From contig JAUYKW010000008.1 of assembly GCA_030698395.1 (NCBI GenBank), positions 1,662 through 65,661 of the forward strand: a DNA stretch of 64,000 nt, in the 5' to 3' direction. This document shows, piece by piece, positions 3,426-41,829 of this stretch; the stretch's first letter is position 1, and each line of letters begins with the position of its first letter. Below the pieces are notes generated by a model that was not told the DNA's origin, did no database searches, and worked only from the letters and a program-made list of their open reading frames with translations. The translations under genes were made by a program, and so were the position numbers. The stretch is from a bacterium. Its GTDB lineage: Bacteria > Patescibacteriota > Patescibacteriia > UBA9570.

Positions 3426-3427
3426 TA

Positions 3428-5606: not shown

Positions 5607-6510
5607 AAAATCAAAAAAACAACCTAACATTACTTTATTGGTTATTGTATTAATGCTAGCAATATTTGGTTTAGTAGCTGCATTTTTAATTGCTACTACA
5701 TATTTTCAGGCAAGTTTGGAAAATATGGTATTGCAAAAGCAACAGCAAAATGACATTACTGTTGAGAATGTAGTTACAAAAATATCTACTGATATCTTAG
5801 AAGGAGAGCAAGTGCATGATTTATCAGATTTAAGATATTCAGAGTATGCCAGTCAATTATCTGGTACTGCACAGTTTTATCCAGAACCTGCAGAGCCTAA
5901 TAATTTTAGAGCGGAAAATATTGGTATTGGTGATAGAATATTATTAACTTGGGAAGTGCCTTTCGGACAATCGTATGAAGGAGTTGAAATAAATAGAGAT
6001 GGAGTTTTATTAGAATCAATACCAAGTGAAAGTGGTAGCTTTATTGATGTAAACGTTGTTAATGGGGAGACTTATAAATATTCAATTAGGTCTTATCGTA
6101 CTATTGATGATGTAGTTAATTACTCCAAAACAACAGAAGCAATAAAAGTAAAAGTAAAAGATGATGTTCCACCAGCTGCTCCAAAAAATGTTTCTGTGGT
6201 AGTTAGTGCTGATAATCCAGTTGAGTTAATAGTATCATGGGATAATGGGGACGAAGCTGATACAGATCATTATGTGATATACAGGTCTACAGAGTATGGG
6301 GTTAAAGGGGAAAATATTGGAAATATAGAAAAATCATTTACTGAGGCAAGTGATTCTACCGTAGAGCCAGGAGTTACATACTATTACACAGTAACTGCAG
6401 TTGATTTATCAGGAAATGAATCTACTGGAATATTACCTCACGCTACACCGGGTAACACCACTCCATTTGGTAAGAGTATTGAAGGTGATAATATTGAAGA
6501 ATCACTATAA
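5599..6510 (+). CDS. Membrane-anchored protein with fibronectin type III-like domain(s). It sits where pilP/pilQ would be in diderm pilus loci.
   Basis: There is an N-terminal TM helix. FN3-like signatures (PKNVSVVVSADNPVELIVSWDNG...TYYYTVTAVDLSGNES) are present. Confidence 0.5.
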   Translation: MSRKSKKQPNITLLVIVLMLAIFGLVAAFLIATTYFQASLENMVLQKQQQNDITVENVVTKISTDILEGEQVHDLSDLRYSEYASQLSGTAQFYPEPAEPNNFRAENIGIGDRILLTWEVPFGQSYEGVEINRDGVLLESIPSESGSFIDVNVVNGETYKYSIRSYRTIDDVVNYSKTTEAIKVKVKDDVPPAAPKNVSVVVSADNPVELIVSWDNGDEADTDHYVIYRSTEYGVKGENIGNIEKSFTEASDSTVEPGVTYYYTVTAVDLSGNESTGILPHATPGNTTPFGKSIEGDNIEESL

Positions 6511-6517
6511 ATAAAAT

Positions 6518-8254: not shown

Positions 8255-8256
8255 TT

Positions 8257-8634
8257 ATGAGTATTGAAAAGAAAAAAATATTACTAGTTGAAGATGATAC
8301 GTTTATTTCTGATATGTACAGGAAAAAACTAGAGAGTTCTGGATTTAATGTAGTATCATCAACTGATGGCATGAGCGCTTTAGTATTAGCAGCGTCAGAG
8401 TATCCCGATTTAATTTTATTGGATATTATGTTGCCAAAGATGGATGGTTGGGATGCACTTGATAGACTAAAAGATGATCCGGATACTAAAGATATTCCAG
8501 TAATCATTATGACAAACCTTGGGAGCCAAGAGGATGTTAAGCGGGGATTAGAGATGGGAGCTGTAGATTATTTAATCAAAGCTCATTTTGTTCCATCGGA
8601 AGTAGTTAAAAAAATAAGTGCAATTATTCAATAG
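8257..8634 (+). CDS. Stand-alone CheY-like response-regulator receiver (PilH-like).
   Basis: The receiver motifs LLVEDD...LILLDIMLPKMDG...K are present. It is 125 aa and has no output domain. Confidence 0.85.
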   Translation: MSIEKKKILLVEDDTFISDMYRKKLESSGFNVVSSTDGMSALVLAASEYPDLILLDIMLPKMDGWDALDRLKDDPDTKDIPVIIMTNLGSQEDVKRGLEMGAVDYLIKAHFVPSEVVKKISAIIQ

Positions 8635-9667
8635 TATGTCATCAGTTGATTCAGCTTCAGAAATTCAAATTCAAAAATTGTTATCAGCAGTTGCAGAGTA
8701 TAAAGCGACCGATTTACATTTGAGCGTGGGCAGTACCCCAGTTCTGAGGATGGGCGGAAAATTAGTGCCATTAACATCAGAGCCTTTGTTAACAAGTGAA
8801 TTTATTCAAACTGTAGCGTCATTGATGCTAACTCCAGAATTGAATGCAAAATTACAAGAACAGAAATCAATTTTATTTATTTATTATTCTAAATCAAAGG
8901 CCAGGTACAAGGTGCATATGTATTTTCAGGGTGGATTTATTTCTATTAGTTTAAGATTAATTCCGTCTTTAGCTACACCAATCAATGGATTGGAGTTGCC
9001 ACAAGAAGTTAAGAATCTAGTTCAGGTGGAATCTGGTATGATTATAGTTTGTGGACCGTATGGATCAGGAAAATCTACAATTTTAGCTGGTTTTATTGAG
9101 TATTATAATCAAAATCTTGGTAAGCATATAGTTACTTTTGAAAAACCTGTAGAATTCTTAATTAATGATAGTAAATCAATAGTTGAACAACGCGAGATAG
9201 GTAAAGATATTAATTCCATTAATCAAATATCAGAATTTGTTTCTACTGAGGATGTGGATATTGTGTTATTAGCAGATTTATTCAATCATGAAACTATGCA
9301 GGTGGCTTTTGATGCCGCTCGCATGGGTAAGTTGGTTTTAGTGGAAGCTAACACTGATAGTATTCGTGATACCCTGGAAAGTATTATTGGAATGTATAAA
9401 ATAGATGAACAACCTGCAATTATAGCCACAATGGTAAAATCTCTCAAAGCTATAGTAGCATTAGAAAGTCTACCAAATACATCTGGATCCGTGTCGATCG
9501 CGGCAGAGGTATTAGTGATGACGCCAAGCGTACAAGGCTTGTTACAGCAAGGAGCATTGGAGAAAGTTGATATGATTATTGAAGGAGGTAGAAATGAAGG
9601 AATGATTTCTATAAAAGAAGCAAAAGAGGCAATGGCGCAGGCAGGTATTATTAACTTACGTATGTAA
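8618..9667 (+). CDS. pilT: PilT-like twitching-motility/retraction ATPase.
   Basis: It has a Walker A motif (GPYGSGKSTILAG). At about 350 aa it matches the PilT/PilU size class. It lies between pilB and pilC. Confidence 0.7.
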   Translation: MQLFNSMSSVDSASEIQIQKLLSAVAEYKATDLHLSVGSTPVLRMGGKLVPLTSEPLLTSEFIQTVASLMLTPELNAKLQEQKSILFIYYSKSKARYKVHMYFQGGFISISLRLIPSLATPINGLELPQEVKNLVQVESGMIIVCGPYGSGKSTILAGFIEYYNQNLGKHIVTFEKPVEFLINDSKSIVEQREIGKDINSINQISEFVSTEDVDIVLLADLFNHETMQVAFDAARMGKLVLVEANTDSIRDTLESIIGMYKIDEQPAIIATMVKSLKAIVALESLPNTSGSVSIAAEVLVMTPSVQGLLQQGALEKVDMIIEGGRNEGMISIKEAKEAMAQAGIINLRM

Positions 9668-9668
9668 A

Positions 9669-10880
9669 ATGGCACTTTATTCATATACAGCAAAAAATAC
9701 TATTGGTGGTACAACAAAAGGAGTTGTGGATGCACCTGATGAGGAATCAGCTAAAAATTTGTTACGCGAACGTCAGTTAATTGTATTAACGCTTAAAACA
9801 AAATCAAGGCATAATCCATACGAGTTGTTGATGAATGCCATGAATAAGGTAAAAGTTAAGGAGGTTACTTTTTTTGCTAGACAATTATCTGTATTAATAA
9901 ATGCTACTATACCAGTAGTGAGGGCATTGAAAGTGTTAGTAAAACAAACTGAGAATAAGGTTTTTAAAGAAATTATTTCAGATGTTGCATCAGAAGTTGA
10001 TGGTGGTGCAAAATTATCGCAAGCAATGGCTCGTTATCCTCATGTGTTTGATGGTTTCTTTGTTCATATGGTGAGAGCAGGAGAAACTACTGGTAGATTG
10101 GATCAGGTATTGAACTATTTAGCGGATCAGAAAGAGAAAGATTATGCATTGCGAAGTCAGATAACTGGCGCGATGATGTATCCTGGCTTTATTATGATGG
10201 CCATGATTGGAATTGGTGTTGTAATGCTTATTTGGGTAGTTCCAAAGTTGGCTGGCATTATTACACAGGGTGGGGGAGAGCTACCTTTTGCAACCGCTGT
10301 ATTGCTTGGCTTGAGTTCTTTCTTTGTTGGATATTGGTGGTTAATAATATTATTAGTAGGAATAATAGGTGGGGGTGTTTATTTTTTTGCTAGAACAGCT
10401 CAAGGTAAATATTATATAGATGTATTAAAACTCAAACTGCCAGTTATAGGGCCATTATTTCAAAAGGTTGCTCTTGCTCGTTTTGCTGTAAGTTTTTCCA
10501 ATTTATTATCCAGTGGTGTGCCTGTTACAAAATCTTTGGGTATTGCTGGAGATGTGATTGGAAATGCTGTTTATCAAGATATTATAAAGAGGACAATCGT
10601 AGAAGTCGAAGGTGGTAATTCAATATCTACTATATTTGCTACTAGTAAGTATGCACCACCAATTGTTGCACAGATGATAAGTGTAGGTGAAGAAACTGGT
10701 AAATTGGACCAAATCTTAGGTAAATTAGCTGATTTCTATTCCAAAGAGGTGGAAAACTCTGTTGCGACTCTTACTAGTTTAATGGAGCCGATGATTATTG
10801 TTACTTTGGGATTAGGAGCTGCTTTTATGGTTTATGCGATATTGATGCCAATGTATAATATTACAGACTCTATTGGCTAA
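9669..10880 (+). CDS. pilC: Type IV pilus platform protein PilC (GspF family).
   Basis: It is 403 aa with a duplicated GspF-like architecture and three TM regions. It follows the ATPases. Confidence 0.85.
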   Translation: MALYSYTAKNTIGGTTKGVVDAPDEESAKNLLRERQLIVLTLKTKSRHNPYELLMNAMNKVKVKEVTFFARQLSVLINATIPVVRALKVLVKQTENKVFKEIISDVASEVDGGAKLSQAMARYPHVFDGFFVHMVRAGETTGRLDQVLNYLADQKEKDYALRSQITGAMMYPGFIMMAMIGIGVVMLIWVVPKLAGIITQGGGELPFATAVLLGLSSFFVGYWWLIILLVGIIGGGVYFFARTAQGKYYIDVLKLKLPVIGPLFQKVALARFAVSFSNLLSSGVPVTKSLGIAGDVIGNAVYQDIIKRTIVEVEGGNSISTIFATSKYAPPIVAQMISVGEETGKLDQILGKLADFYSKEVENSVATLTSLMEPMIIVTLGLGAAFMVYAILMPMYNITDSIG

Positions 10881-10904
10881 GAAGTAGAATTATTGATATA
10901 TGTA

Positions 10905-10933
10905 TTGCAACAGAATATAAAATGTGCTATAAT
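10905..10933 (+). promoter_or_regulatory. Near-consensus sigma70 promoter for pilA: TTGCAA, 17-nt spacer, TATAAT with an upstream TG.
   Basis: The sequence is ttgcaa-cagaatataaaatgtgc-tataat, about 50 nt upstream of the pilin ATG. Confidence 0.55.
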
Positions 10934-10984
10934 AAACTTAATTAATTAAGAACCTTATCTAACTAATATTGTATAAATAAAAAT

Positions 10985-11473
10985 ATGCGTAAAGGTTTTA
11001 CCCTAATCGAGCTCTTAATCGTTATTGCGATTATTGGATTACTTGCCACTTTGGCAATCGTGTCCCTAACAACTGCGCAACAAAAAGCGCGTGACACAAA
11101 ACGTATAGCTGATCTTAAACAGCTACAAAATGCAACAGAGTTATATTTCAGCGAAGTTACTCCAGGATCATACCCAGCTGCTACTACTTGGGCTGCTTAT
11201 GCTGCGGATGTAGCTGATTATATTTCTGTAATGCCAATCGATCCAACAAATGATACTGATTTTTATTATGTCTACGCAGATAATGATACTGGCGATGAGT
11301 ATGTACTCGGAGCTACGTTGGAAAATACTACTCACTCAGCCTTAAATGGTGATGATGATACTAACTATACTGCAGCAGGTGCATGGTTAGCTATTACACC
11401 AATTTCATCTTCCATTGCTACACCAGCAACAGTTAACTGTAGTCTTGCTGGAGCATATTGTTTATCTGAATAA
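10985..11473 (+). CDS. pilA: Type IV major pilin (PilA-like).
   Basis: The prepilin leader is MRKG|FTLIELLIVIAIIGLLA, with Glu at +5. Two C-terminal cysteines (NCSLAGAYC) could form a disulfide loop. Confidence 0.85.
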   Translation: MRKGFTLIELLIVIAIIGLLATLAIVSLTTAQQKARDTKRIADLKQLQNATELYFSEVTPGSYPAATTWAAYAADVADYISVMPIDPTNDTDFYYVYADNDTGDEYVLGATLENTTHSALNGDDDTNYTAAGAWLAITPISSSIATPATVNCSLAGAYCLSE

Positions 11474-11494
11474 TCTCACTAGTTGATTATCCAA

Positions 11495-11522
11495 AGAGCG
11501 CTCTAACGGGCGCTCTTTTTGG
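11495..11522 (+). terminator. Rho-independent terminator after the first pilin gene.
   Basis: Stem agagcgc / gcgctct, 8-nt loop, followed by a T-run. Confidence 0.6.
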
Positions 11523-11609
11523 TTTAAATAGTGTAAGTATTTTGCTATTCTTATTTCCATTAATAATGATATACTTACCGTAGTGTATTTAATTTTTTAT
11601 AGGCAAGCT

Positions 11610-12098
11610 ATGCGTAAAGGTTTTACCCTAATCGAGCTTTTAATCGTTATTGCGATTATTGGATTACTTGCCACTTTGGCAATTGTGTCTTTAACATCTG
11701 CACAACAAAAATCACGTGATGCAAAACGTATAGCTGATATTAAACAACTACAAAATGCAACGGAGCTGTATTTCAATGAGATTACGGTTGGTTCATATCC
11801 TGATCCAGCCAATTGGACAGAGTATACAAATAATTTAGTACCAATTATGTCATCTATGCCTACAGATCCAACTAATGATGCCACTAGATTTTATATATAC
11901 GCTACAAATGACAGTGCAGATGAATATGTGATTGGTACTAGATTAGAAGATGTAAATCATCCTGCACTGAGTGGTGATGATGATACAAACTATACTGCAG
12001 TAGGTGCATGGTTAGGAATTTCACCAGTAACTTCTTCAGTGGCAACTCCTACTACTGTAAATTGTAGTTTAGCAGGTGTTTATTGCCTTTCAGAGTAA
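11610..12098 (+). CDS. pilA: Second type IV pilin, a paralog of the upstream pilA.
   Basis: The leader is the same, MRKG|FTLIELLIVIAIIGLLA. The C-terminus is the same (NCSLAGVYCLSE), while the central region has diverged. The start is set at the internal ATG, 11610. Confidence 0.8.
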   Translation: MRKGFTLIELLIVIAIIGLLATLAIVSLTSAQQKSRDAKRIADIKQLQNATELYFNEITVGSYPDPANWTEYTNNLVPIMSSMPTDPTNDATRFYIYATNDSADEYVIGTRLEDVNHPALSGDDDTNYTAVGAWLGISPVTSSVATPTTVNCSLAGVYCLSE

Positions 12099-12168
12099 TT
12101 AATATTTGATGTTATAAAGGGGCGTATTCATGGGGCGCTCTTTTTAATTCTTGTGATATACTAAAGGC

Positions 12169-12939
12169 ATGACAATACCAGTGTTATTTGCAGTATTAAT
12201 GGCCGCTCTATTTGGGCTAGGATTTGGTAGTTTTCTAAACGTATTTGTGTTGCGTACTTTTAGTGGTGAAACCCTAACGGGGCGTTCGCATTGTGTTTCT
12301 TGCCAAAAACAGATAGCATGGTTTGATTTAATTCCAGTTTTTTCATATCTTTTTTTGTTAGGAAAGTGTAGATATTGCAAGAAAGGTATATCTGCTCAAT
12401 ATCCAATTGTTGAATTTTGTTGTGCTACTTTGTTAGTTATCATTGCAGTATGGTTTTATGGTGAGCCAATTCAGATGGCAATTTATATGATGTATGTATT
12501 TTTTTTGTTAGCCATCTTTATATATGATCTTAAATACTATCTAATACCTGATATTTTGACACTACCTGGCATTGTTCTTGCTGTGATTGGTAGTTTAATT
12601 CTTGGATTTTCTTGGTGGAATATTTTTTTAGGCATGCTTGTGGGTGGAGGAATATTTTTCGCGCAATATGTTTTTTCTAAAGGCAGGTGGATCGGTGGCG
12701 GAGATATTAGACTTGGCTTGTTAATGGGTGCAATGTTAGGATTTCCAAATATAATAGTTGCATTATTTTTAGCTTATTTATTTGGTGCGGCCATAGCAGT
12801 TCCACTTGTAATTACTAGAAAAAAAAATCGTAAGGATAAATTACCATTTGGAACTTTTTTAACCTTCGCAACATTTATTACAATACTTTTTGGAGATAAA
12901 ATAATGAATTGGTATTTATATGGAGTCATCGGGTTATAG
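12169..12939 (+). CDS. pilD: Prepilin peptidase PilD (A24 family).
   Basis: It has CxxC...CxxC zinc motifs (CVSCQK...CRYCKK), is polytopic in the membrane, and is 256 aa long. Confidence 0.85.
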   Translation: MTIPVLFAVLMAALFGLGFGSFLNVFVLRTFSGETLTGRSHCVSCQKQIAWFDLIPVFSYLFLLGKCRYCKKGISAQYPIVEFCCATLLVIIAVWFYGEPIQMAIYMMYVFFLLAIFIYDLKYYLIPDILTLPGIVLAVIGSLILGFSWWNIFLGMLVGGGIFFAQYVFSKGRWIGGGDIRLGLLMGAMLGFPNIIVALFLAYLFGAAIAVPLVITRKKNRKDKLPFGTFLTFATFITILFGDKIMNWYLYGVIGL

Positions 12940-32931: not shown

Positions 32932-34266
32932 ATGGCAGATCCATTTAAGCCAGGGAGTGTAGCAAGAAAAATAGATTCTGATGTTCCACCAGCTGAAGAA
33001 GATGACTTAGGTATTTCTGTTGAGCATGCTGCTGTTTTAGATCGAGCAGCTCGTTATGGTGATCTTGAGAATGATGTTGAAGAGGGCTTGAGTGAAGCAG
33101 AGAAAAAAAATAAGGTGGCAGAGCTGGCAACTACTTTTGCTAGTGAGGATCATAGATTTGATAGAGAATTGATGAATGCGATAGATATAAAGCTTGGTGC
33201 TAAACATATGGCCATGGAGCAAAGTCTATCTGGTTTCGTTGAATATATAAATGAACCTGATTTGGAATCTTGTAATAAATTATTGGAGATTTTTGGTGAA
33301 ACTAGAATGGAATTTGAGGAACGATTTGGATATTTAGAGATGTTCAAGAGTAGAATGCAACGATCAGAGTTTCCAGAAGTTCGAGCGATGGCGTTAATAA
33401 TTGAAAAATCATACGCAGCGATGCTGCAGTACGCAGATTTATTATCGGCAGCTGAGAATTTAATGGGTAAGATAAAGAACCAGGTCGAGATGACTGGATT
33501 ACCAGAAGATATTGCATTACAGCAATTAAAAAAATTGAGTAATAAAATAGCTACATTGTATCGAAATGAGCTCCACAAAGTCGGTAGAAATGTTCGTCAC
33601 GCGTTAGCGTACGAAGGATATCGTGCATATATTGATAGTACTGATGATAAAGAAAATTTAAGAGAAGGCGATGTTGATGAGGATTATCTTTATGAATCTG
33701 GGATAAAGTTGGATGATGTGAAATTAAATGAAGGAGATATAAAAACACTCCAAGCATTGGATTTTAGAATGAAAGGTAGAGTTGGAGCTATTACGACTGA
33801 GTTGTTTAATTCCACCAGCGAAGAGAGATTAGAAAAAAATAGACAATCACTAGAAACGATACAGAAAGTTAAAATGTACTTTCAGGATCGTATGCAAATT
33901 ATATCTGATATATTACCAACACTAAACGAGGCTGATTCTATCTTTTTGCAAGAATTGCACATGCCAATGAGAGAGTTCATTATAGAAATGGAAAATCTAT
34001 TTAGCGTTTTGGATCGAGCTATTGTTGAATTGAATAAGTTAGTAGAAAGTAATTTATCAATTGAAGATAGATCTCTAATACAAATTAAATTGGATGAAAT
34101 GCAGAATGAAGTTGAGAGAATTTATCAACAAAAACTACAACCATTTGCAAATGTGGTCGCTACAAATTTAGCTTATATGAAGTACCGTAAAGGCGTGACT
34201 GAAACTCAAAGAGACGAGACGCCTGAATTGGTAGGTGAAGATTATCAATTAAATGTTGCTAAGTAA
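32932..34266 (+). CDS. Hypothetical acidic, probably helical protein (444 aa) embedded in the aromatic operon.
   Basis: The ORF is intact in the host low-GC composition. No motifs were recognised. Confidence 0.4.
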   Translation: MADPFKPGSVARKIDSDVPPAEEDDLGISVEHAAVLDRAARYGDLENDVEEGLSEAEKKNKVAELATTFASEDHRFDRELMNAIDIKLGAKHMAMEQSLSGFVEYINEPDLESCNKLLEIFGETRMEFEERFGYLEMFKSRMQRSEFPEVRAMALIIEKSYAAMLQYADLLSAAENLMGKIKNQVEMTGLPEDIALQQLKKLSNKIATLYRNELHKVGRNVRHALAYEGYRAYIDSTDDKENLREGDVDEDYLYESGIKLDDVKLNEGDIKTLQALDFRMKGRVGAITTELFNSTSEERLEKNRQSLETIQKVKMYFQDRMQIISDILPTLNEADSIFLQELHMPMREFIIEMENLFSVLDRAIVELNKLVESNLSIEDRSLIQIKLDEMQNEVERIYQQKLQPFANVVATNLAYMKYRKGVTETQRDETPELVGEDYQLNVAK

Positions 34267-34272
34267 ATTATA

Positions 34273-34893
34273 ATGATGAAAATAGCAGTATCCGGAGAAA
34301 AGGGTAGTTTTTCACATCAAGCAGCGCAGCTTTATGCTACAGCTCACAGTTTAAGTGATATTGATATTATCTTTTGTGGTGATAGCGCTGGTGCATTTAG
34401 TGCTTTATCTAATAAAGAAGCAGATAAAATTATTATTCCAATATATAATTCAACAGGAGGTTTTGTGAACATGACGTTGCAAGCTATGGGAGAGTTTTTG
34501 TTTCAGATTGAAGAAATGTTCGAAATGAATGTATTGCAATGTTTGCTGATAGATAAAAATATTAATGCTGATCAGATTGAGCAGATTGCATCTCATCCTC
34601 AGGCATTGAAACAATGCAAAGATTATTTACAAGAGAATTGGTCCGGTAGAGAGTTATTAGAATATCAAGATACAGCCAAGGCAGCCAAAGATTTAGCAAG
34701 CGGTAAATTAGATAACACCACAGCTGTGATAGCACCTGAATTAGCTGCAGAAATTTATGGGCTCAAGGTACTGGAAGAATCAATTCAAGATTTGAAATTT
34801 AATGCTACAACTTTTTTAGTAGTAGCTTCACCAGGTGGTGAAAAACAATCTGAAGAGATTAAACAGGAAAAATTAAAGGAGGAACTAGAATAG
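34273..34893 (+). CDS. pheA: Prephenate dehydratase-like (PDT domain only, no ACT domain).
   Basis: The N-terminus IAVSGEKGSFSHQAA resembles the PDT start (GxxGSFS/TE.A). It is in aromatic-pathway context. Confidence 0.65.
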   Translation: MMKIAVSGEKGSFSHQAAQLYATAHSLSDIDIIFCGDSAGAFSALSNKEADKIIIPIYNSTGGFVNMTLQAMGEFLFQIEEMFEMNVLQCLLIDKNINADQIEQIASHPQALKQCKDYLQENWSGRELLEYQDTAKAAKDLASGKLDNTTAVIAPELAAEIYGLKVLEESIQDLKFNATTFLVVASPGGEKQSEEIKQEKLKEELE

Positions 34894-34894
34894 T

Positions 34895-35584
34895 ATGAAC
34901 ATAGGAATTATAGGTGCTGGTAGATTTGGTAAGTTGCTCGCTGAACAATTGGAAAATGATAATAAAATTTTTCTTTTTGATAAGTTAGATGATAAAGATG
35001 AATTAGAGTCTTGTAATTTAGTTATTTATGCAGTACCAAATAGTTTATTGCAAGACGTAATAAATGAAACAAAAGAATTTATTCAATCAGATGCGATTGT
35101 AATGGATGTTGGTTCGGTTAAAATAAAACCATGTGCTGTGTTACAGGAAGCATTTGGAGAAAATATTTTAGGTACGCATCCGCTGTTTGGCCCAGATAGT
35201 GCTAGTGATTCTTGGGAGGGACATAAGATGGTTTTTTGCAAATTGAATATTCCTGATGATCAGTATAATAAAGTAAAAGAATTATTTATTAGCAGGGGAG
35301 TTAAAGCAATTGAATGTTCACCAGAGGAACATGATAAAATGATGGCTAAAACTCAAGCTTTAGTACACTACATTGGACGAGCACTTTCTGGAATTAAAGA
35401 GCAAGAAATATCTACGCCAGATTATGCAAATTTATTACGCATGATGGAGAAAGTTACTCATGATACTTGGGAATTATTTTATGACATGCAAAATTTGAAT
35501 CCGTATGCTAAATTAGAAAGAGAAAAGTTCAGTAAAAATATTGCTGAGTTAGAAGAAAAAATTAACCAAGAGTTAGATAAATAA
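34895..35584 (+). CDS. tyrA: Prephenate/arogenate dehydrogenase.
   Basis: The NAD(P) motif is IGIIGAGRFG. It is in aromatic-pathway context. Confidence 0.7.
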   Translation: MNIGIIGAGRFGKLLAEQLENDNKIFLFDKLDDKDELESCNLVIYAVPNSLLQDVINETKEFIQSDAIVMDVGSVKIKPCAVLQEAFGENILGTHPLFGPDSASDSWEGHKMVFCKLNIPDDQYNKVKELFISRGVKAIECSPEEHDKMMAKTQALVHYIGRALSGIKEQEISTPDYANLLRMMEKVTHDTWELFYDMQNLNPYAKLEREKFSKNIAELEEKINQELDK

Positions 35585-35587
35585 AGT

Positions 35588-35854
35588 ATGATCGAAAAAT
35601 CTTTAGAAGAATTAAGAGAGCAGATTGATAATATTGATGAAAAGATAATAAAATCAATTGGTGAAAGGTTTTTGGTTGTTGAGAAAATTGGAAAACTAAA
35701 GCAGGCGACTGGAATTCCAGTGCAAGATCCACACCGAGAAGCAAAATTATTATTGAAATTAAATACTTTAGCTCAGAAATATAACGTGTCCATTGAGGTA
35801 GTTACTCATATATATGACTATTTAATGCATCATTCCAGAGATAGCCAGCAGTAG
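35588..35854 (+). CDS. AroQ-class chorismate mutase.
   Basis: It is an 88-aa helical protein, with LEELREQIDNID...IGKLK typical of AroQ chorismate mutase. Confidence 0.8.
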   Translation: MIEKSLEELREQIDNIDEKIIKSIGERFLVVEKIGKLKQATGIPVQDPHREAKLLLKLNTLAQKYNVSIEVVTHIYDYLMHHSRDSQQ

Positions 35855-35871
35855 CATTATTAAAGAAAATT

Positions 35872-35900
35872 TTGACACTTTATAAAGTATAAATTATAAT
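35872..35900 (+). promoter_or_regulatory. Perfect consensus sigma70 promoter: TTGACA, 17 nt, TATAAT.
   Basis: The sequence is ttgaca-ctttataaagtataaat-tataat. Confidence 0.55.
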
Positions 35901-35906
35901 GTTCTT

Positions 35907-36095
35907 AAGTTTATGAATTTTATACACAGCAACAACTTATCTAAGCTTAAATGGACAGTGGTCTCTTCTATTAAGACACTGGTACGTATTTATTTACATA
36001 TAGCGCGGGCAAGGATAAGCAATGCAATTACATAAGTTGCATAATAAACAGAAAAGCTGCAACCTTAGCCCGCGAAAAAAACGCGGGATTTTTAT
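35907..36095 (+). ncRNA. Candidate ~190-nt small RNA or leader transcript, running from the consensus promoter to an intrinsic terminator. It contains a long imperfect stem (36003-36014 with 36063-36074) that competes with the terminator stem, and an optional 30-codon sORF.
   Basis: The promoter and terminator were read from the sequence, with no gene in between. It could not be matched to SRP RNA, 6S RNA, tmRNA or RNase P consensus motifs. Confidence 0.3.
36068..36095 (+). terminator. Intrinsic terminator: stem cccgcg / cgcggg, a 7-A loop, and a T-run.
   Basis: The sequence is gcccgcg-aaaaaaa-cgcggg-atttttat. Confidence 0.55.
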
Positions 36096-36230
36096 ATATT
36101 ATTTCTAGACTACTCGACTGGTATCCTCCGCACTAGTTGAGTCGCCTGGAAAGTAATTTCCAGATTATCGTTCTTTGTAAAGTATTTATCCCTATTTTTA
36201 GAAGTTATTCTGTTAATGGTGATAAAACAA

Positions 36231-36251
36231 TTTTAGAGGCAACGTGAAATT
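36231..36251 (+). repeat. Conserved leader box TTTTAGAGGCAACGTGAAATT, copy 1. Copy 2 is at 37283-37303, and a degenerate copy 3 is at about 37815-37835.
   Basis: Two copies are identical over 21 nt. Each lies upstream of a GC-rich ORF in the island. Confidence 0.6.
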
Positions 36252-36275
36252 AAATCTGGTTTAAAACGTAGCAGA

Positions 36276-36342
36276 GCGAGGAAAATGGTTTTTGTAGATA
36301 CGCGATTAATCGCGTATCTACGGATAAAAATATTTTCCTCGC
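36276..36342 (+). repeat. 67-nt inverted repeat. The outer arms are gcgaggaaaat / attttcctcgc. They enclose a perfect 28-bp palindrome, GTAGATACGCGATTAATCGCGTATCTAC (36294-36321).
   Basis: Read directly from the sequence. It lies about 80 nt upstream of the first GC-rich ORF. Confidence 0.7.
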
Positions 36343-36422
36343 TCCGGCTACCTAGTAGACCGGATTTCTCGGGTCATAGACCCATCCTCATACTCCTGCT
36401 GAAAAGCATGTGGAGATTCTCG

Positions 36423-37064
36423 ATGTCTGTTCGCCCTTCCAGTCCCTGCTCCAAGCTCGTCGTGCTCGCCGATGATGCTCCTGCCCTCTCCGTTCTCTGC
36501 GAGTTCATCGAGCCCAAGGCTATCGGTGGTCGCTGCATGTCCTTCGAAAGCACTCAGGTGCTGTTCTTCAACCGGAACAATCTGCAGGGCCTCGTGGCTC
36601 GGGTCGTGGTTCGGCGCACTGCTCGACCGCTCGGCGACAACATCGTATCTGTGCGCACGGTCGACGTGATCGTGGTGAACAGCGAAGATGATCTTCGACA
36701 CTACTTGCAGGACTCCCAGGTGTTGCATCTGCGCAGCACCGATCAGCGCCAGCCTGCCATGTACACCTTCACCCACAGCAAGATGTTCCCCAAGCCGCCC
36801 AGTGGTAGTGCTCACATCTGTCAGTTCGAGACTGGTCACCTGCAGAGTCACCTCCGGAACCTGGTGTCGGTTCTCTACTCGGGATGGTTCTCCCGCAAAC
36901 CGCAGGATGCCACGGTCTGCACGCCGAACAGCGCCATCGCCCAGATGTCTGGCTACATCGGACGTTCCACCCTGGCCTTCGAGGAAGGAGGTTATGGCGG
37001 AAGCGTGCAGTTCGGTCAGGACGACGCTTACGACGCGATCCGCGAGGACGGTTCTCGCTTGTAG
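36423..37064 (+). CDS. GC-rich (~60% GC) hypothetical protein of 213 aa, with strong G/C bias at codon third positions.
   Basis: The + frame has about 85% G/C at third positions with very few A, while all other frames look like wrong-frame GC-rich noise (R/P/S-rich). An SD (GGAGA) lies 8 nt upstream of the ATG at 36423. No known motifs were recognised. Confidence 0.5.
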   Translation: MSVRPSSPCSKLVVLADDAPALSVLCEFIEPKAIGGRCMSFESTQVLFFNRNNLQGLVARVVVRRTARPLGDNIVSVRTVDVIVVNSEDDLRHYLQDSQVLHLRSTDQRQPAMYTFTHSKMFPKPPSGSAHICQFETGHLQSHLRNLVSVLYSGWFSRKPQDATVCTPNSAIAQMSGYIGRSTLAFEEGGYGGSVQFGQDDAYDAIREDGSRL

Positions 37065-37080
37065 AAGAGCGAATAGAGGG

Positions 37081-37197
37081 CACGATTCGTCGTGGACAGT
37101 GATGGTAGACCGCATGACACCTCCTGTCGGGCTTCTTCTTTTCACGTTGCCCACCTCTCCTTTGTTTATCTATTAGCCCTTGCTAAATGGTAGAAAA
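37081..37197 (+). repeat. Conserved ~115-nt 3' trailer element, copy 1. H1 is CACGA-UUCG-UCGUG. H2 is gacag...ctgtc. H3 is gggc...gccc. Then follows ACCTCTCCTTTG and an AATGGTAGAAAA box.
   Basis: It is about 85% identical to 37633-37745, and a degenerate third copy is at about 38166-38240. Compensatory changes keep the stems intact: H2 is gacag/ctgtc in copy 1 and gacaa/ttgtc in copy 2; H3 is gggc/gccc in copies 1 and 2 and aggc/gcct in copy 3. Confidence 0.65.
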
Positions 37198-37320
37198 TAA
37201 GGTAAATAATGTAGTGGTAATAATTAGTCGTTCCTTTTATTTGTACTGGATGAATAACACTATTCTTTCAGTATTAACAGTATTTTAGAGGCAACGTGAA
37301 ATTCTAGCTGGTAATGTCCT

Positions 37321-37362
37321 AGGGTGAGGATATTGGTTTTATAACCAATGCCCCCACCCTGG
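37321..37362 (+). repeat. Conserved 5' leader stem-loop, copy 2: AGGGTG-AGGATATTGGTTTT-hairpin-ATGCCCCC-CACCCT. Copy 3 is at 37866-37919: TGTTGGGGT-AAGGATATGGGTTTTT-...-ATGCCCCC-ACCCCAACA.
   Basis: The closing stem differs in sequence but keeps its pairing in the two copies. A related AGGAAAATGGTTTTT motif sits in the 67-nt IR upstream of ORF1. Confidence 0.5.
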
Positions 37363-37620
37363 CTTACATTCGTAAAGCTGGAAATTGGGTTTCGACCCAC
37401 CCCTCAACCCCTCGAAAGGATCCTCCAGGTGGCTAAGAAAAAGCGGAAGAAGGAAGTTTGTAGAAGTGGTAGCAAGAAGATTCGTGTTGTGCAAATCAGC
37501 GATGCGGAACTTCGCAGGAGTACTATATCTGAGCTTTGTCGGAAGTATCATGGACGCATGGTCGTTGTTAACGGTCAGCGGTTCCTGATGACGAACGAAG
37601 AGCACAGCGAACACACCTGA
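37348..37620 (+). CDS. Small basic protein (63-90 aa depending on start), moderately GC-rich, a paralog of the 37933-38136 ORF.
   Basis: The ATG at 37348 lies inside the conserved noncoding ATGCCCCCACCC motif. A GTG at 37429 preceded by AAAGGA is a plausible alternative start. It shares ELCRKYHGRMVVVNG with EFCRRYNGQQVTIGS in the next ORF. Confidence 0.4.
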   Translation: MPPPWLTFVKLEIGFRPTPQPLERILQVAKKKRKKEVCRSGSKKIRVVQISDAELRRSTISELCRKYHGRMVVVNGQRFLMTNEEHSEHT

Positions 37621-37632
37621 GCAACCTGGGGT

Positions 37633-37745
37633 CACGATTCGTCGTGGACAATGATGATGGACTATTCGTCGTCACTTGTCGGGCTTCAACTCTTCACGTT
37701 GCCCACCTCTCCCTTGACTATTATCATTAAAAATGGTAGACAAAG
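37633..37745 (+). repeat. 3' trailer element, copy 2.
   Basis: See copy 1. The identical H1 hairpin cacgattcgtcgtg is present. Confidence 0.65.
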
Positions 37746-37932
37746 GATTGGTGAAAGTCATTCGTTCTTTATAACTAATGTGATGACTCACAATAATATT
37801 GTGATAGTTACTATTTTTTTCAGGCAATATGAATAGATCGTGGGCTAAACGTCCAAAAGGACTATGTTGGGGTAAGGATATGGGTTTTTCGATAAAAATC
37901 TATGCCCCCACCCCAACAAGTAAGGAGTGCTC

Positions 37933-38136
37933 ATGAATGCACCAGATGCTGAGCCCGGCGGTGTACGTGGCAGCGAGAGAGAGGTAGATCGAGACATGCA
38001 GAGATTTTCAGCGCGGGAGTTCTGCCGGCGTTACAATGGTCAGCAGGTCACTATCGGCTCCATGCGGATTCACATTCGCTACGAGCCCACTCCCTCGTTG
38101 CCGCGCGATCGGCCGGAGGCGCAGCTGTCCATCTAG
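37933..38136 (+). CDS. Small protein (67 aa) paralogous to the 37348-37620 ORF.
   Basis: A strong SD, AAGGAG, lies 5 nt upstream of the ATG at 37933. About 68% of third positions are G/C. The upstream ATGCCCCCACCCC motif is out of frame and terminated, so it is noncoding here. Confidence 0.45.
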   Translation: MNAPDAEPGGVRGSEREVDRDMQRFSAREFCRRYNGQQVTIGSMRIHIRYEPTPSLPRDRPEAQLSI

Positions 38137-38165
38137 GGCAGCGGAGGTTGTGGCTGGTGGTGCAG

Positions 38166-38240
38166 TCATAGACAAGATGGTAGGCTACGCCCCATCCTGT
38201 TAGGCTTACCGTTTTCATATTGCCTACCTCTCTTTTGATT
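38166..38240 (+). repeat. 3' trailer element, degenerate copy 3.
   Basis: It aligns to copies 1 and 2 over GATGGTAG...TCCTGT..GGCTT...TTTTCA..TTGCC.ACCTCTC.TTTG, with stem covariation. Confidence 0.5.
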
Positions 38241-38374
38241 AGCTAGTAAGCTAGTTGTTTAGAAGAGAGGTAAGTTTCAACAGGATCTTTCCCAAGTACG
38301 TTTAGTTGCACTAGCGACTTTGCGTCAACAGTTTTTTTGACAACGTCAGTTATGCACCTACCTAGCAGGAGGAG

Positions 38375-38467
38375 ATGGTAGGGAAGTTGCAGCAAGAGGT
38401 GCTGCAGGTGGGATTTTTCGTCTCCATCCCATTGGACAACCCGCTGACGTTGTCCCTTTCCTTATAA
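38375..38467 (+). CDS. Possible 30-codon sORF (MVGKLQQEVLQVGFFVSIPLDNPLTLSLSL) bracketed by an 11-nt inverted repeat (gacaacgtcag at 38338-38348, ctgacgttgtc at 38444-38454).
   Basis: An AGGAGG lies immediately upstream of the ATG. It is short and unsupported otherwise. Confidence 0.15.
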   Translation: MVGKLQQEVLQVGFFVSIPLDNPLTLSLSL

Positions 38468-38573
38468 ATATCATTTGTTGGTACTTATAAGGATTTGGAT
38501 AATTGTGAATAAGTTAAATAATATAAGTTGACTTATTAAAAAAATAATATATTCTTTATTTTAAGAAGTATTT

Positions 38574-38663
38574 ATGAATATTCTTTTTGCCCAAATAAAT
38601 CTTATTAGCATTATTAGCCTGCTTATTAGCCATGGTTCTTTGCGTTATGAACAAACTTAAGTA
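38574..38663 (+). CDS. Possible 29-aa hydrophobic peptide (MNILFAQINLISIISLLISHGSCVMNKLK), followed by a terminator.
   Basis: It is a short ORF in host-like AT-rich composition. An intrinsic terminator lies 25 nt downstream. No clear SD was seen. Confidence 0.2.
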
Positions 38664-38684
38664 AAAAAGTAATTCAAACGTAAA

Positions 38685-38713
38685 GAACCCTGTCAAATAT
38701 CGCAGGGTTTTTT
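38685..38713 (+). terminator. Intrinsic terminator: aaccctg-tcaaatatcg-cagggtt-ttttttt.
   Basis: Read from the sequence. Confidence 0.55.
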
Positions 38714-38811
38714 TATTGCCTCATTAATTTCTCCTTTAACAGGGGATGAGAACCGTACGGCGGTAGGAGGAGTCTATCGTTCTTCCTGTACGCTTCGGCA
38801 ACGAGGATACA

Positions 38812-39036
38812 ATGTACCGGCGCGGTACCTGGGAGTTTTATCAGTTCAACGCCGTGTTTCACGCTGAGCTGGTCAGGTGTTCGAATGGCATCGTGGCGCT
38901 GATGTGGCGCAACGAGGTGCACAAGACCGGTGCCAACGAAGTGACCATTGCGTACCGACGGTTCGAGCGTCAGCAGTGGAGCTTCTGGGCTCATTCGGCC
39001 ACAGGAGGCACCTGTGACACGTCCGCGGTCTACTAG
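38812..39036 (+). CDS. GC-rich hypothetical protein (74 aa) with high G/C at third positions.
   Basis: About 78% of third positions are G/C. A GGAGG lies about 45 nt upstream and the proximal SD is weak (GAGGAT). It is flanked by an inverted repeat: gcgagacggcgg (39083-39094) and ccgtcgtctcg (39137-39147). Confidence 0.35.
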   Translation: MYRRGTWEFYQFNAVFHAELVRCSNGIVALMWRNEVHKTGANEVTIAYRRFERQQWSFWAHSATGGTCDTSAVY

Positions 39037-39231
39037 CAGCTCCGAGAGCGTTGCTACGCCTGACGCAAATACGGAATCTCACGCGAGACGGCGGCATGGG
39101 TTGACTAGATGTATTTATGTACGTCTTGCTATCACCAGCCGTCGTCTCGACCGTTCATCTTATTTATTGTTTAATTTGCTCTAAGAAATAAAATCATTTA
39201 TACTCATTAAAGTTAAGTTAAAGGATATATC

Positions 39232-41829
39232 ATGCAAAATTCTTTCGAACAATTACAAAATTACCTTGCTAAAAATCCAGATTTAGTTGCAGAAACTACG
39301 CGGCGGAAGCGAACATTAGTTTACATCGCTGGAATGTCTTTGGATCAAGAGGAGCTTGCTAAGGTACGAGGTATTGAGTTTTACGAAGAACGTTTATTAT
39401 ACGTTGTTGGCTTATTACGAGATCCAAACACTAAGATTGTTTTTGTATCCTCAAAGCAAATTGATCCAGTTATTATTGATTATTATTTTGATTTATTTAG
39501 TAGATCTCAGAAAGAGCGGATTAGCATGGAGAAAAGATGGCATCATTTTTATATTGGTAATAGTAGAATTCATAAAACTTTAACTCAAAAAGTTTTAACA
39601 TCAAAACGGTTGGTTATTCAAATTAATCAGCAAATTGATAATACTAAGCAAGCTGTATTACGGTGTTTTAATTCGTCTGAAGATGAAAAAGCCCTAGCAG
39701 TTAAATTAAATATTCCTTTATATGCTCCAGATCCTAAATTTTTACATTATGGATCGAAATCCGGAGCTCGTCAGGTGTTCAAGCAAGCAGGTTTAAAACC
39801 ACCATATGGAGTAGAAAATATTACCTCAATGTTGGAGTTGATTAACTCAATTAGAAAAATTAAACAGCATGAGAAGGGGGTTGAACAAGTTGTTGTAAAA
39901 TTTGATTACAGCTTTTCTGGAGTAGGTAATGCTAATTTGACGGTAAGCAAATTTCCACGTACAAATGTAGCTGCCGAGAAGTACATTAAAACTCATCTTA
40001 AACCAAATGAATCAGATGTTACTGCGATTCAGTATTTAAAAAAGTTATTTGATATTGGTGGAATTGTTGAAACGTGGTTACAAGGAATACGAATCTTTTC
40101 ACCAAGTGTTCAGTTAGCAATAGATCCAGATAAGAGTGTCCGGATTATTTCTAGTCATGAGCAGTTGCTTGATGAAGAAACAAAACAAGTTTTTTTAGGA
40201 GCTAGATTTCCGGCTCGTAAATCGATGAGACAACCTTTGTTACTACAGGCAGAAAAGGTGGGAAAAGAATTAGCTGATGCAGGAGTGATTGGATTTTTTG
40301 GAATAGATTTTATTGCTGTGAAAGAGAAAACAAAATATGTTGCGTATCCTATTGAAATAAATTTGCGCAAAGGTGGAGCAACACATCCTTTTCAGATAGC
40401 TAGAATGTTAACGCAAGGTAGCTATAAAAAAGATGGAGCTATGCGTGATGATTCACGACAGAGGATTGCATATTATTCTTTTGATAACATTAAATCTACA
40501 GATTACGTTGGTTTGAAGCCTGAGGAAATTATTAAAATAGTTAAGCAAGCAGGGCTAGAATTTGATCATGAAAATAATGGTGGAGTTTCTTTACACTTGT
40601 TAGGAAGCTTAAAAAAATATGGAAAATTTGGTACAGTTTGTATTGCACGTTCACCACGAGCAGCTGAGCAATTATTTATCATTTTAACTAAGGTTGTTGA
40701 TGCGTATGTGGCACGAAAATCAGAAATTGAAATTGTTACACCTCAAGTAGTTTCTGTAAATCAAAAGAGATTGGTTGATACTTTTATAAAATTAGTTAAG
40801 ATTGCTAGTCCTTCAGGAGAAGAAGCAAAAATTAGATTATTGCTTAGAGAAGAATTAGTGAGATTGGGCGTAAAAACAAGAGTTGATAAGTCAGGAAATT
40901 TAATCGGTAAAAAACCAGGTGTAGGTACCGTACCGTTTTTGTTATCAGCACATATGGATACTGTAAAACCATGTGAAAATGTTAATCCCGTAATTAGGGG
41001 AAATACTATCATGACAGATGGCACTACTATATTGGGCGCAGACAACAAGGCTGGAATTGTATATATTTTGGAGCTACTGCGATTATTGCATGAATTTGAT
41101 ATTAAACATCGGCCATTAGAAATAGTAATGTCTGTCTGTGAAGAACAGTTTTCGGGTGGAGCAGACGAACTTGATGTTTCTAAATTAAAATCTCCAGTTG
41201 GTCTGGTTGTGGATGGTGCTGATTTAGGGGAGGTTGATTATATTTCACCTTATATAGCAACCATTAATGTATCTGTTATTGGTAAAGCTGCTCATTCTGG
41301 AGTAGAGCCAGAAAATGGTGTAAGTGCGATTCAGATAGCATCTAACGCTATTGCAAATATGCCATTAGGAAGACTTGATCATGATACGACTGCAAATATT
41401 GGCTTAATTACTGGTGGGACTAATAGAAATGCAATTCCAGATCGAGTAGAATTAGAAGGAGAAGTACGAAGTTTAACAAAACGATATTTAGAAGAACAGT
41501 TAGAGCGAATGCATAAGGCTTTAGAAGATGCTGCTGAGTTATATGGCGGGTTACTTGATATTTCTAGTAAGATAGCTGTTCAAGGTTACAAATTTTCCAA
41601 AAATGATCCTGATTTAAAGAAGATTATGCAGATTATGAAAGAAGTAGACATTAAACCAGATTTAAGGAAAGCTGGGGGTGGTTCAGATGCGAATGTATTT
41701 GTTGCTAGAGGCATAAAAACTATTGATGTTGGGACAGGTGTACAGAAGCCACATACTGTTGAAGAGAGTATAAAAATAGACGACATGACGAAGATGGTAG
41801 AATTTTTATTAAAGATTGTCCAAGTTTAG
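39232..41829 (+). CDS. Two-domain protein: an N-terminal ATP-grasp-type ligase domain fused to a C-terminal M20-family metallopeptidase domain (peptidase T/ArgE/DapE-like).
   Basis: The ATP-grasp signatures are VVVKFDYSFSGVGN (compare VxxKP..GSxGxGV) and GIDFIAV...YPIEINLRKGG (compare EVNxxPG). The M20 signatures are SAHMDTV, GADNKAG and IGKAAHSG. Confidence 0.55.
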   Translation: MQNSFEQLQNYLAKNPDLVAETTRRKRTLVYIAGMSLDQEELAKVRGIEFYEERLLYVVGLLRDPNTKIVFVSSKQIDPVIIDYYFDLFSRSQKERISMEKRWHHFYIGNSRIHKTLTQKVLTSKRLVIQINQQIDNTKQAVLRCFNSSEDEKALAVKLNIPLYAPDPKFLHYGSKSGARQVFKQAGLKPPYGVENITSMLELINSIRKIKQHEKGVEQVVVKFDYSFSGVGNANLTVSKFPRTNVAAEKYIKTHLKPNESDVTAIQYLKKLFDIGGIVETWLQGIRIFSPSVQLAIDPDKSVRIISSHEQLLDEETKQVFLGARFPARKSMRQPLLLQAEKVGKELADAGVIGFFGIDFIAVKEKTKYVAYPIEINLRKGGATHPFQIARMLTQGSYKKDGAMRDDSRQRIAYYSFDNIKSTDYVGLKPEEIIKIVKQAGLEFDHENNGGVSLHLLGSLKKYGKFGTVCIARSPRAAEQLFIILTKVVDAYVARKSEIEIVTPQVVSVNQKRLVDTFIKLVKIASPSGEEAKIRLLLREELVRLGVKTRVDKSGNLIGKKPGVGTVPFLLSAHMDTVKPCENVNPVIRGNTIMTDGTTILGADNKAGIVYILELLRLLHEFDIKHRPLEIVMSVCEEQFSGGADELDVSKLKSPVGLVVDGADLGEVDYISPYIATINVSVIGKAAHSGVEPENGVSAIQIASNAIANMPLGRLDHDTTANIGLITGGTNRNAIPDRVELEGEVRSLTKRYLEEQLERMHKALEDAAELYGGLLDISSKIAVQGYKFSKNDPDLKKIMQIMKEVDIKPDLRKAGGGSDANVFVARGIKTIDVGTGVQKPHTVEESIKIDDMTKMVEFLLKIVQV

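Follow-up and report, generated by a model that had tools for sequence, protein, structure and literature searches.

A tandem array of four small modules, each enclosed by two short boxes that are reverse complements of each other, lies in a GC-rich island of a 64,000-nucleotide stretch of Patescibacteriota DNA (GenBank assembly GCA_030698395.1, contig JAUYKW010000008.1, positions 1,662 to 65,661; hereafter the window). The first of these boxes had been noticed in a reading of the sequence alone, as a conserved leader upstream of GC-rich open reading frames (ORFs). Its partner, which ends each module behind the ORF, had been overlooked. The sequences show directly the complementarity of the boxes, its covariation, and a conserved architecture and orientation of the modules. 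Our best reading, to which we give an about even chance of being right, is that the boxes form a closing helix between the 5' and 3' parts of each module's transcript and lock it, as in hok or aapA1 mRNAs. We infer both that the pairing takes place in RNA and what it does there.

The 21-nt box TTTTAGAGGCAACGTGAAATT occurs exactly twice in the 64 kb, at 36231-36251 and 37283-37303, as the sequence-only reading had stated, and the degenerate third copy that it proposed is TTTTTCAGGCAATATGAATAG at 37816-37836, identical at 14 of 21 positions. Shuffled windows gave no match to the box, even with three mismatches allowed. On the far side of the cargo, a conserved 3' element, TTCAYRTTGCCYACCTCTC, is found at 37141, 37693 and 38214, and its first 11-12 bases complement the 5' box of the same module. 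The two strands are GGCAACGTGAAA / TTTCACGTTGCC in modules 1 and 2, and AGGCAATATGAA / TTCATATTGCCT in module 3, where the central CG is replaced by TA on both sides. In module 4, which has no ORF, they are GACAACGTCAG / CTGACGTTGTC. All four modules of the window are complementary to themselves in this way, in three sequence variants, and searches for the boxes restrict the bracket to this array within the 64 kb. The proposal of a stand-alone 5' leader, riboswitch or operator is not borne out: the box supplies the 5' strand of a helix whose partner lies 100-900 nt downstream, behind the cargo.

Since the cargo itself gave almost no homologues, we traced into relatives the neighbouring gene, which encodes a protein of 865 amino acids (aa) and has orthologues with 50-66% protein identity. 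In five of these loci (L047, L048, L049, L052 and L053) small ORFs that are GC-rich for their host, mildly so in L052, stand upstream of the orthologue; these ORFs have no recorded Pfam match and do not resemble the cargo of the window. The number of modules varies from 1 to 4 per locus and the cargo differs between relatives. The bracket is the same in other letters, and its box pairs are as follows.

L048-A: 5' box TGGGTAACGTAAT, 3' box ATTACGTTACCCA
L048-B: 5' box GGACAACGGT, 3' box ACCGTTGTCC
L049-B: 5' box GGTAACGTTAAGG, 3' box CCTTAACGTTACC
L047 (no ORF): 5' box GGCAACGTGAT, 3' box ATCACGTTGCC
L053: 5' box GGTAACGTAAGG, 3' box CCTTATGTTACC (one G.U)

The bracket is also present in three of the four contigs that carry a distant homologue of ORF1, the cargo gene of module 1. 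The two modules of L054 stand in another genomic setting, ahead of a 108-aa ORF and of a partial ORF that we take, from its sequence, to be mnmA-like. L055 and L057 show an opening terminator, a 5' box, the first hairpin and an ORF1-family gene before the contig ends. The more distant L050 and L144 keep the general layout with degenerate boxes. No further bracket was found in about 20 kb around the locus of the relatives. Exact scans with a 19-nt pattern of 3' box plus tail gave candidates that we rejected: 15 single matches in genome contigs, 30 in metagenome contigs and none in viral contigs, a second scan of which also gave zero. All of these matches lacked both a 5' partner and neighbouring features, and many were a ribosome-binding site plus ATG on the opposite strand. 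The pattern is too strict, as true relatives have other tails (CGCCTTTCTG in L054).

An alignment of ten complete modules, drawn from six genomes, gave 13 pairs to compare in the box helix, which is 10-14 bp long. With the 3' boxes located partly by complementarity, 90.8% of the cells are paired; nine of the 13 pairs change on both sides (22 cells), three are invariant, and just one cell differs on one side alone. None of 500 shuffles reached this pairing and covariation, and sliding the 3' partner by 1-3 columns reduced the pairing to 32-51%. The position of the 3' box is also fixed independently, directly before a C/U-rich tail and a second hairpin.

Folding predictions agree with the alignment. 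In ViennaRNA predictions the helix has a probability of 0.89-1.0, flanks included, over spans of 105-902 nt; for modules 2 and 3 it is also the closing element of the minimum-energy fold. Compared with dinucleotide shuffles, whole modules reach z = -4.5, -5.6, -6.8 and -7.3, while most cargo coding regions stay at z ~0; the excess structure is therefore mostly in the untranslated parts. For the same reason, selection for coding-region folds was rejected as the source of the GC richness for most of the cargo, L048_B and L048_C being exceptions. The folding energy is lower on the + strand in 7 of 9 modules, and the L053 helix has a G.U pair that would be C.A on the opposite strand. The interior polarity is identical in every module seen: hairpin 1 beside the 5' box, and the ORF on the + strand, co-directional with the host genes.

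Architecture of the modules

From 5' to 3', a module opens with a T-rich stretch, which the 5' box and hairpin 1 follow; then come a Shine-Dalgarno sequence with its ORF, small 3' hairpins, the 3' box and the tail. The features of the window are listed below with predicted pairing probabilities; the first line is the transcription unit that opens the island.

35872-36095, + strand: island-opening unit with sigma-70-type promoter, 40-codon AT-rich ORF or small RNA (sRNA), and terminator
36231-36251, + strand: module 1 5' box, helix strand GGCAACGTGAAA at 36238-36249
36270-36346, + strand: module 1 hairpin 1, basal arms 36274-36292 / 36326-36344
36294-36321, + strand: apex of module 1 hairpin 1, palindrome GTAGATACGCGATTAATCGCGTATCTAC resembling repetitive extragenic palindromic (REP) elements
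36423-37064, + strand: module 1 cargo ORF1, 213 aa, MDP3970388.1, GGAG 7 nt before the ATG
37081-37094, + strand: module 1 3'-region hairpin CACGA-UUCG-UCGUG, identical to a hairpin of module 2 at 37632-37645
37140-37151, + strand: module 1 3' box TTTCACGTTGCC, pairs with 36238-36249, probability 0.97
37152-37216, + strand: module 1 C/U-rich tail CACCTCTCC and hairpin 2
37283-37303, + strand: module 2 5' box, helix strand 37290-37300
37321-37360, + strand: module 2 hairpin 1, AGGGUGAGGAUAUUGGUU / AACCAAUGCCCCCACCCU
37429-37620, + strand: module 2 cargo ORF2, probable start GTG 37429 behind AAGGA
37693-37703, + strand: module 2 3' box TTCACGTTGCC, probability 0.98
37704-37753, + strand: module 2 tail CACCTCTCCC and hairpin 2
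37816-37836, + strand: module 3 5' box, helix strand AGGCAATATGAA at 37822-37833
37829-37936, + strand: module 3 upstream ORF of 35 codons, with its ATG in the 5' box, spanning hairpin 1
37865-37918, + strand: module 3 hairpin 1, stem tgttggggt/accccaaca
37933-38136, + strand: module 3 cargo ORF3, 67 aa, AAGGAG 6 nt before the ATG, weak ORF2 paralogue
38214-38225, + strand: module 3 3' box TTCATATTGCCT, probability 0.91
38225-38272, + strand: module 3 tail and hairpin 2, ACCUCUCUUUUGA... / ...AGAAGAGAGGU
38339-38454, + strand: module 4, ORF-less bracket, 5' GACAACGTCAG (38339-38349), 3' CTGACGTTGTC (38444-38454), probability 0.99

The 5' box has the core (A/G)GGYAACGU and often resembles a ribosome-binding site followed by a start codon (AGAGG-CAAC-GUG). 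In L049-A its GUG is the start of a long cargo ORF. In module 3, the TGA of the upstream ORF overlaps the ATG of ORF3 (ATGA). The distances from box to start are 192 nt (ATG 36423), 146 nt (GTG 37429) and 117 nt (ATG 37933), and the frame of ORF2 is also open from ATG 37348, inside hairpin 1.

Hairpin 1 begins 10-30 nt past the 5' box, and in several modules it has the base GGGGUG.../...CCCACCCC and the apex palindrome GUAGAGACGC...GCGUCUCUAC. The sequence-only reading had described its arms as motifs: AAGGATATGGGTTTT is the 5' arm and ATGCCCCCACCC, present only at 37348 and 37902, the 3' arm of this single hairpin. The stem agggtg/caccct of module 2 is where it had been placed (37321-37326 / 37355-37360). 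The stem tgttggggt/accccaaca of module 3 exists too, one base to the left of its reported position, at 37865-37873 / 37910-37918. ORF3 (ATG 37933) is in another frame than the ATG at 37902, which meets a stop after 16 codons, and we agree that the motifs are non-coding signals common to the array. In an alignment of 5 modules from 3 genomes (modules 1-3 of the window and counterparts in two other genomes), compensatory change is seen at 13 of 25 predicted pairs, in line with the earlier observation of retained pairing despite altered sequence.

At the other end, the tail after the 3' box is C/U-rich and anti-Shine-Dalgarno-like, for example CCACCUCUC, and is always the first strand of hairpin 2. 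This hairpin always starts right after the 3' box and has a different sequence each time; in L049-B its second strand is the Shine-Dalgarno sequence of the next ORF. L047 has a hairpin, GCACGAAUCGUGC, related to the CACGA-UUCG-UCGUG hairpin of modules 1 and 2.

Brackets without an ORF are found in module 4 of the window, in L047 and in L052. The 94-nt interior of module 4 resembles 3' regions and includes GAGATGGTAGG. The ORF-less modules of L047 (8693-8975) and L052 (about 365-700) have in common a core GGGAACCUUAAGCC...GGUGACGGGUUCGAUUCCCCUCGGUCGCACGA and a stretch resembling a tRNA T-arm, and far surpass shuffles in folding (z = -6.8 and -7.3). Their core may be an undescribed structured RNA; Rfam gave no match in L047. 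The T-arm-like GGGTTCGATTCCCC of L047 was considered as part of a tRNA or tmRNA, an identity that we rejected on this Rfam result, ARAGORN having been run on the window only.

The apex of hairpin 1 in module 1 deserves a separate remark. A palindrome GTAGAGACGC-N8-GCGTCTCTAC, near-identical to GTAGATACGCGATTAATCGCGTATCTAC, is present in 86 stretches of IMG/VR viral contigs, for about 0.2 expected by chance, often several times per contig and most commonly with the loop GATTAATC. Palindrome sites are 36294-36321 in the window, 7836-7863, 8448-8478 and 9100-9128 in L048, about 283-312 in L057, and L058-L137. The REP-type form, which opens with GTAG and closes with CTAC, is seen at 36294-36321, the one copy in the window. 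The palindrome seems to be a REP-like hairpin repeat of wide distribution, copies of which have ended up at the tips of hairpins 1 and 2. A link between palindrome and bracket was rejected, as none of the 86 viral stretches has the boxes, and a literature search on the palindrome found nothing relevant.

Cargo genes and their genomic setting

The window has about 35% GC, with nearly all sizeable ORFs on the + strand, and the island (about 36350-39160, GC up to 0.43-0.60) is its single exception in composition. The host is an AT-rich, Patescibacteria-like metagenome-assembled genome, in which the 865-aa protein has as nearest named relatives those of 'Patescibacteria group bacterium'. Upstream of the island is a block of tryptophan, shikimate and aromatic amino-acid genes ending with chorismate mutase (35588-35854). 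Downstream is the 865-aa gene (39232-41829), a PGM1-like ATP-grasp peptide ligase fused to an M20 peptidase. An independent Logan assembly is 100% identical to this locus across 7.7 kb, which rules out an assembly artefact as the origin of the island.

The GC content at third codon positions (GC3) sets the cargo apart. It is 0.53-0.91 in cargo genes (most at least 0.64; 0.54-0.77 in the window and up to 0.80-0.91 in relatives) against 0.15-0.45 in host genes. GC at the three codon positions is 0.61/0.45/0.75 in ORF1 and 0.53/0.49/0.77 in ORF4, the last ORF of the island; the coding signal of ORF2 is weak (0.52/0.38/0.54). GC per codon position marks the + strand cargo ORFs as real genes. One gene caller had predicted a 268-aa antisense ORF at 36348-37154. 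We rejected a coding role of the - strand in module 1: this ORF is probably not real, because GC by codon position shows it to be the codon-mirrored frame of ORF1. The NCBI protein records from the source of the window include MDP3970388.1 (ORF1) and MDP3970389.1, and the NCBI annotation of the whole island consists of ORF1 only, skipping ORF2, ORF3 and ORF4.

Cargo proteins have 63-365 aa and are hydrophilic and varied, with some basic or Cys-rich members. Pfam, PHROGs, PADLOC and a PDB sequence search gave no match for them. In a word-indexed search of 5.8 billion clusters, ORF1 and ORF2/ORF3 matched only themselves. An exhaustive HMMER search of 1.8 billion representatives found the four distant homologues of ORF1 (32-39% identity), and none outside these small contigs. 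Members of the ORF1 family are about 35% identical to each other and have a GC3 of 0.69-0.86 throughout; in the window, L055 and L057 the gene is the first module after the opening terminator. This mutual divergence, the uniformly high GC3 and the same first-module place in three genomes make the family look, on sequence grounds, like a long resident of AT-rich genomes whose GC richness has been maintained, rather than a recent import from a GC-rich donor. A literature search on GC-rich islands in this phylum found nothing relevant. In L048, the cargo proteins at 7953-8306 and 8617-8991 are Cys-rich with a common LPCGC motif, and may be paralogues like ORF2/ORF3.

The unit that opens the island has a perfect promoter (TTGACA-17-TATAAT, 35872-35900) and a terminator at 36069-36095. 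Its layout of promoter, short AT-rich unit, terminator (..CCCGC..GCGGG-T run) and first 5' box recurs in at least eight related loci (L047, L048, L052, L053, L055, L057, L050 and L144). As its peptide is not conserved among these loci, its product may be an sRNA. Another unit, at 38528-38715, combines a promoter-like site and a terminator (AACCCTG..CAGGGTT with a T run) with a hydrophobic ORF of 28 codons (38574-38660, MNILFAQINLISIISLLISHGSLRYEQT). L047 and L052 have comparable small peptides with a GSL motif in the same place, after the bracketed modules and before the last GC-rich ORF.

ORF4 (38812-39036, region 38740-39160) is GC-rich with a GC3 of 0.77, has no bracket boxes and lies directly 5' of the PGM1-M20 gene. 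Every relative examined has at this position a different, unrelated ORF that is GC-rich for its host (L047 9460-9858, L048 9480-9863, L049 8486-8692, L050 9568-9870, L052 1076-1294, L144 4578-4793). The association of a GC-rich ORF at this place with the peptide-ligase/peptidase gene is steady. Elsewhere in the window, a type IV pilus cluster (2304-12936; PilM-like, two T2SSE ATPases, T2SSF, prepilin peptidase) is ordinary for this bacterial group.

Competing readings of the bracket

If the closing helix forms in RNA, each unit of the array would be a self-contained, structured transcript module of the + strand. The 5' box and its own 3' box, together with hairpins 1 and 2, would close the RNA into a compact domain in which both ends are hidden from ribonucleases. 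In at least some modules a start codon and its ribosome-binding site would be hidden as well, for example the ATG of the module 3 upstream ORF and the GTG that starts the cargo of L049-A. Such a transcript would be stable and poorly translated until processed or unfolded, in the manner of hok/aapA1 mRNAs. The full-length aapA1 mRNA is described as stable and poorly translated by means of a 5'-3' long-distance interaction that hides its Shine-Dalgarno sequence, until its 3' end is processed (PMC5416894). We favour pairing in RNA because of the covariation, the constant interior polarity set against the asymmetric flanks, the UUCG loops, the G.U pair of L053, the greater stability of the + strand in most modules, the hairpins between Shine-Dalgarno and anti-Shine-Dalgarno sequences, the single locus per window, and the lack of recombinase, transposase and reverse transcriptase genes in the parts scanned.

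Several points weigh against this proposal. The case for pairing in RNA is built from sequence and predicted folds, and a consensus scan found weak or no module promoters and no terminator after hairpin 2. The complementarity is strand-symmetric, the helix being equally possible on the - strand or in single-stranded DNA. It is also almost purely Watson-Crick, with 2 G.U among 118 paired cells, which is unusual for RNA helices and fits DNA repeats or a site for a sequence-specific protein. The GGYAACGT core is conserved in sequence, not in pairing alone. Near-identical brackets enclose unrelated cargo in modules 1 and 2, and relatives differ in cargo and in module number, so that some DNA-level exchange is needed. 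Lastly, the cargo proteins are not small hydrophobic toxins.

In the main rival reading, which we consider rather unlikely, the boxes are cassette boundaries at the DNA level, short inverted repeats that a recombinase or transposase encoded elsewhere would recognise in double-stranded or in folded single-stranded DNA, and the RNA structure is secondary. The enzyme would insert, exchange or invert modules, as happens with integron cassettes, Xer-dependent pdif modules or elements like miniature inverted-repeat transposable elements (MITEs). The variable and unrelated cargo at one conserved locus, in 1 to 4 modules, would then be expected, as would the shared brackets of modules 1 and 2, the empty brackets, the L054 bracket with ORF1-family cargo in another genomic context, the conserved core with its nearly pure Watson-Crick helix, and a cargo composition foreign to the host. 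Pfam scans, however, which covered 20 upstream ORFs over 36 kb and 4 genes downstream, show no integrase, recombinase, transposase or reverse transcriptase; there is one array in 64 kb, with no other brackets in the surveyed flanks of the relatives, and no target-site duplication is visible at the flanks. Binding by a transposase needs no position-by-position compensation between the two ends, and the boxes of neighbouring modules lose their complementarity (the 3' box of module 2 against the 5' box of module 3, and likewise from module 3 to 4), so that an attC-like site across the spacer is not maintained in the array. The uniform interior polarity argues against frequent inversion, the place of the ORF1-family cargo directly after the opening terminator in three loci looks like vertical descent, and the 5' and 3' flanks are asymmetrically conserved around internal hairpins that look RNA-like.

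The sequence-only reading had proposed that box and hairpin form a cis-regulatory 5' leader, either a riboswitch or an operator for a regulator, perhaps one of the small proteins of the array. In favour of this, box and hairpin are placed after a likely transcription start and before the ORF, covariation accompanies the conservation of hairpin 1, and the GGYAACGU core is conserved across genomes. We nevertheless consider this very improbable. The conserved property of the box is its complementarity to a site behind the ORF, and Rfam gave no match at E <= 1 in window positions 34000-41000 (in L047-L049 its sole match was a spurious snoRNA outside the island). Unrelated hairpins replace hairpin 1 in L054-M2 and L049-B, hence there is no conserved ligand-binding core. 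Binding by the ORF2 and ORF3 proteins is unlikely because relatives keep the bracket around unrelated cargo or none, and relatives of these two proteins are absent from the other genomes that keep it. A trans-acting host protein could recognise the GGYAACGU core, given its conservation in sequence across genomes. Finally, chance matches, or a chimeric assembly joining GC-rich to AT-rich DNA, come to mind for a metagenome-assembled genome with cargo so unlike its host in composition, and are almost certainly wrong: the absence of box matches in shuffled windows, the identical independent assembly and the helix covariation refute them, and the architecture recurs in other samples and assemblers.

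A broader interpretation, which we regard as quite unlikely, is that a Patescibacteria lineage keeps a dedicated locus of bracketed cassettes, where exchangeable high-GC3 genes persist over long evolutionary time in low-GC3 genomes. If true, this persistence would require some mechanism, as yet unknown, that is linked to the bracket and maintains or exchanges the genes, or strong selection for ultra-stable stored mRNAs or, most speculatively, messages tuned to a translation regime other than the cell's own, such as that of a GC-rich host of these presumed epibionts. Patescibacteria are difficult to cultivate, and next to nothing is known of their post-transcriptional control or mobile DNA. The locus is a compact and testable case, with a covarying long-range helix around tandem modules and a composition opposite to that of the genome, and one cargo gene family appears to have stayed there through deep divergence. 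Should the bracket act in RNA, end-to-end mRNA locking of the hok type would reach a new phylum, there in a modular system of several genes; should it act in DNA, it would be a cassette system without known recombinase. Either way, the persistent high GC3 is unexplained by current models of bacterial base composition.

Comparison with known systems

The bracket matches no described family, and a literature search on cassette systems found nothing relevant and no description of it. Integron cassettes are likewise tandem small units with unrelated, often orphan cargo, and their own two ends are complementary, with AAC/GTT triplets at the centres of the boxes as here. The attC site is a contiguous imperfect palindrome of 57-141 nt that follows the ORF immediately and carries the motifs RYYYAAC (R'') and GTTRRRY (R'). 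In our modules, in contrast, the AAC-type box precedes the ORF and the GTT-type box follows it, so that a folded attC-like site would have to contain the gene, and the boxes read (A/G)GGYAACG instead of RYYYAAC/GTTRRRY. The modules also differ in having a structured leader of 100-190 nt and their own ribosome-binding site. No IntI tyrosine recombinase was found by the Pfam scans of 20 ORFs upstream and 4 genes downstream, which is weak evidence, and integron cassette arrays without integrase exist.

Short inverted repeats around small or no cargo are also the mark of pdif modules and of MITE-like elements such as Correia and ERIC, which are transcribed and fold in mRNA. The pdif (Xer) modules of Acinetobacter plasmids use a 28-bp two-arm Xer site, whereas the boxes here have 10-14 bp. 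Unlike MITEs and other elements with terminal inverted repeats, the modules show no target-site duplication and no dispersed copies in the 64 kb window or the flanks of the relatives. They differ from invertible segments by a single interior polarity in all complete modules and by the identity of the two assemblies of the window locus.

In rRNA operons, the sequences on either side of 16S and of 23S pair into stalks that RNase III cuts for processing. In the array, too, tandem units are each bracketed by a putative long-range helix of their own flanks; the helices here are of only 10-14 bp and the enclosed units are mostly mRNAs.

By analogy, the bracket would work most like the end-to-end mRNA locking of the hok/aapA type, yet it departs from that family in several features. 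The cargo proteins are hydrophilic and of 63-365 aa, against a membrane peptide of less than 60 aa in type I toxins. No antisense RNA was identified as antitoxin here; a promoter scan gave weak - strand promoter-like sites inside ORF2. The modules further differ from hok and aapA in being tandem, with one conserved bracket, some of them ORF-less, and in carrying compositionally foreign cargo. As mok does for hok, the upstream ORF of module 3 overlaps the main start. The likeness to type I toxin mRNAs lies above all in the 5'-3' long-distance interaction, which is supported here by covariation and thermodynamic prediction and would form in RNA.

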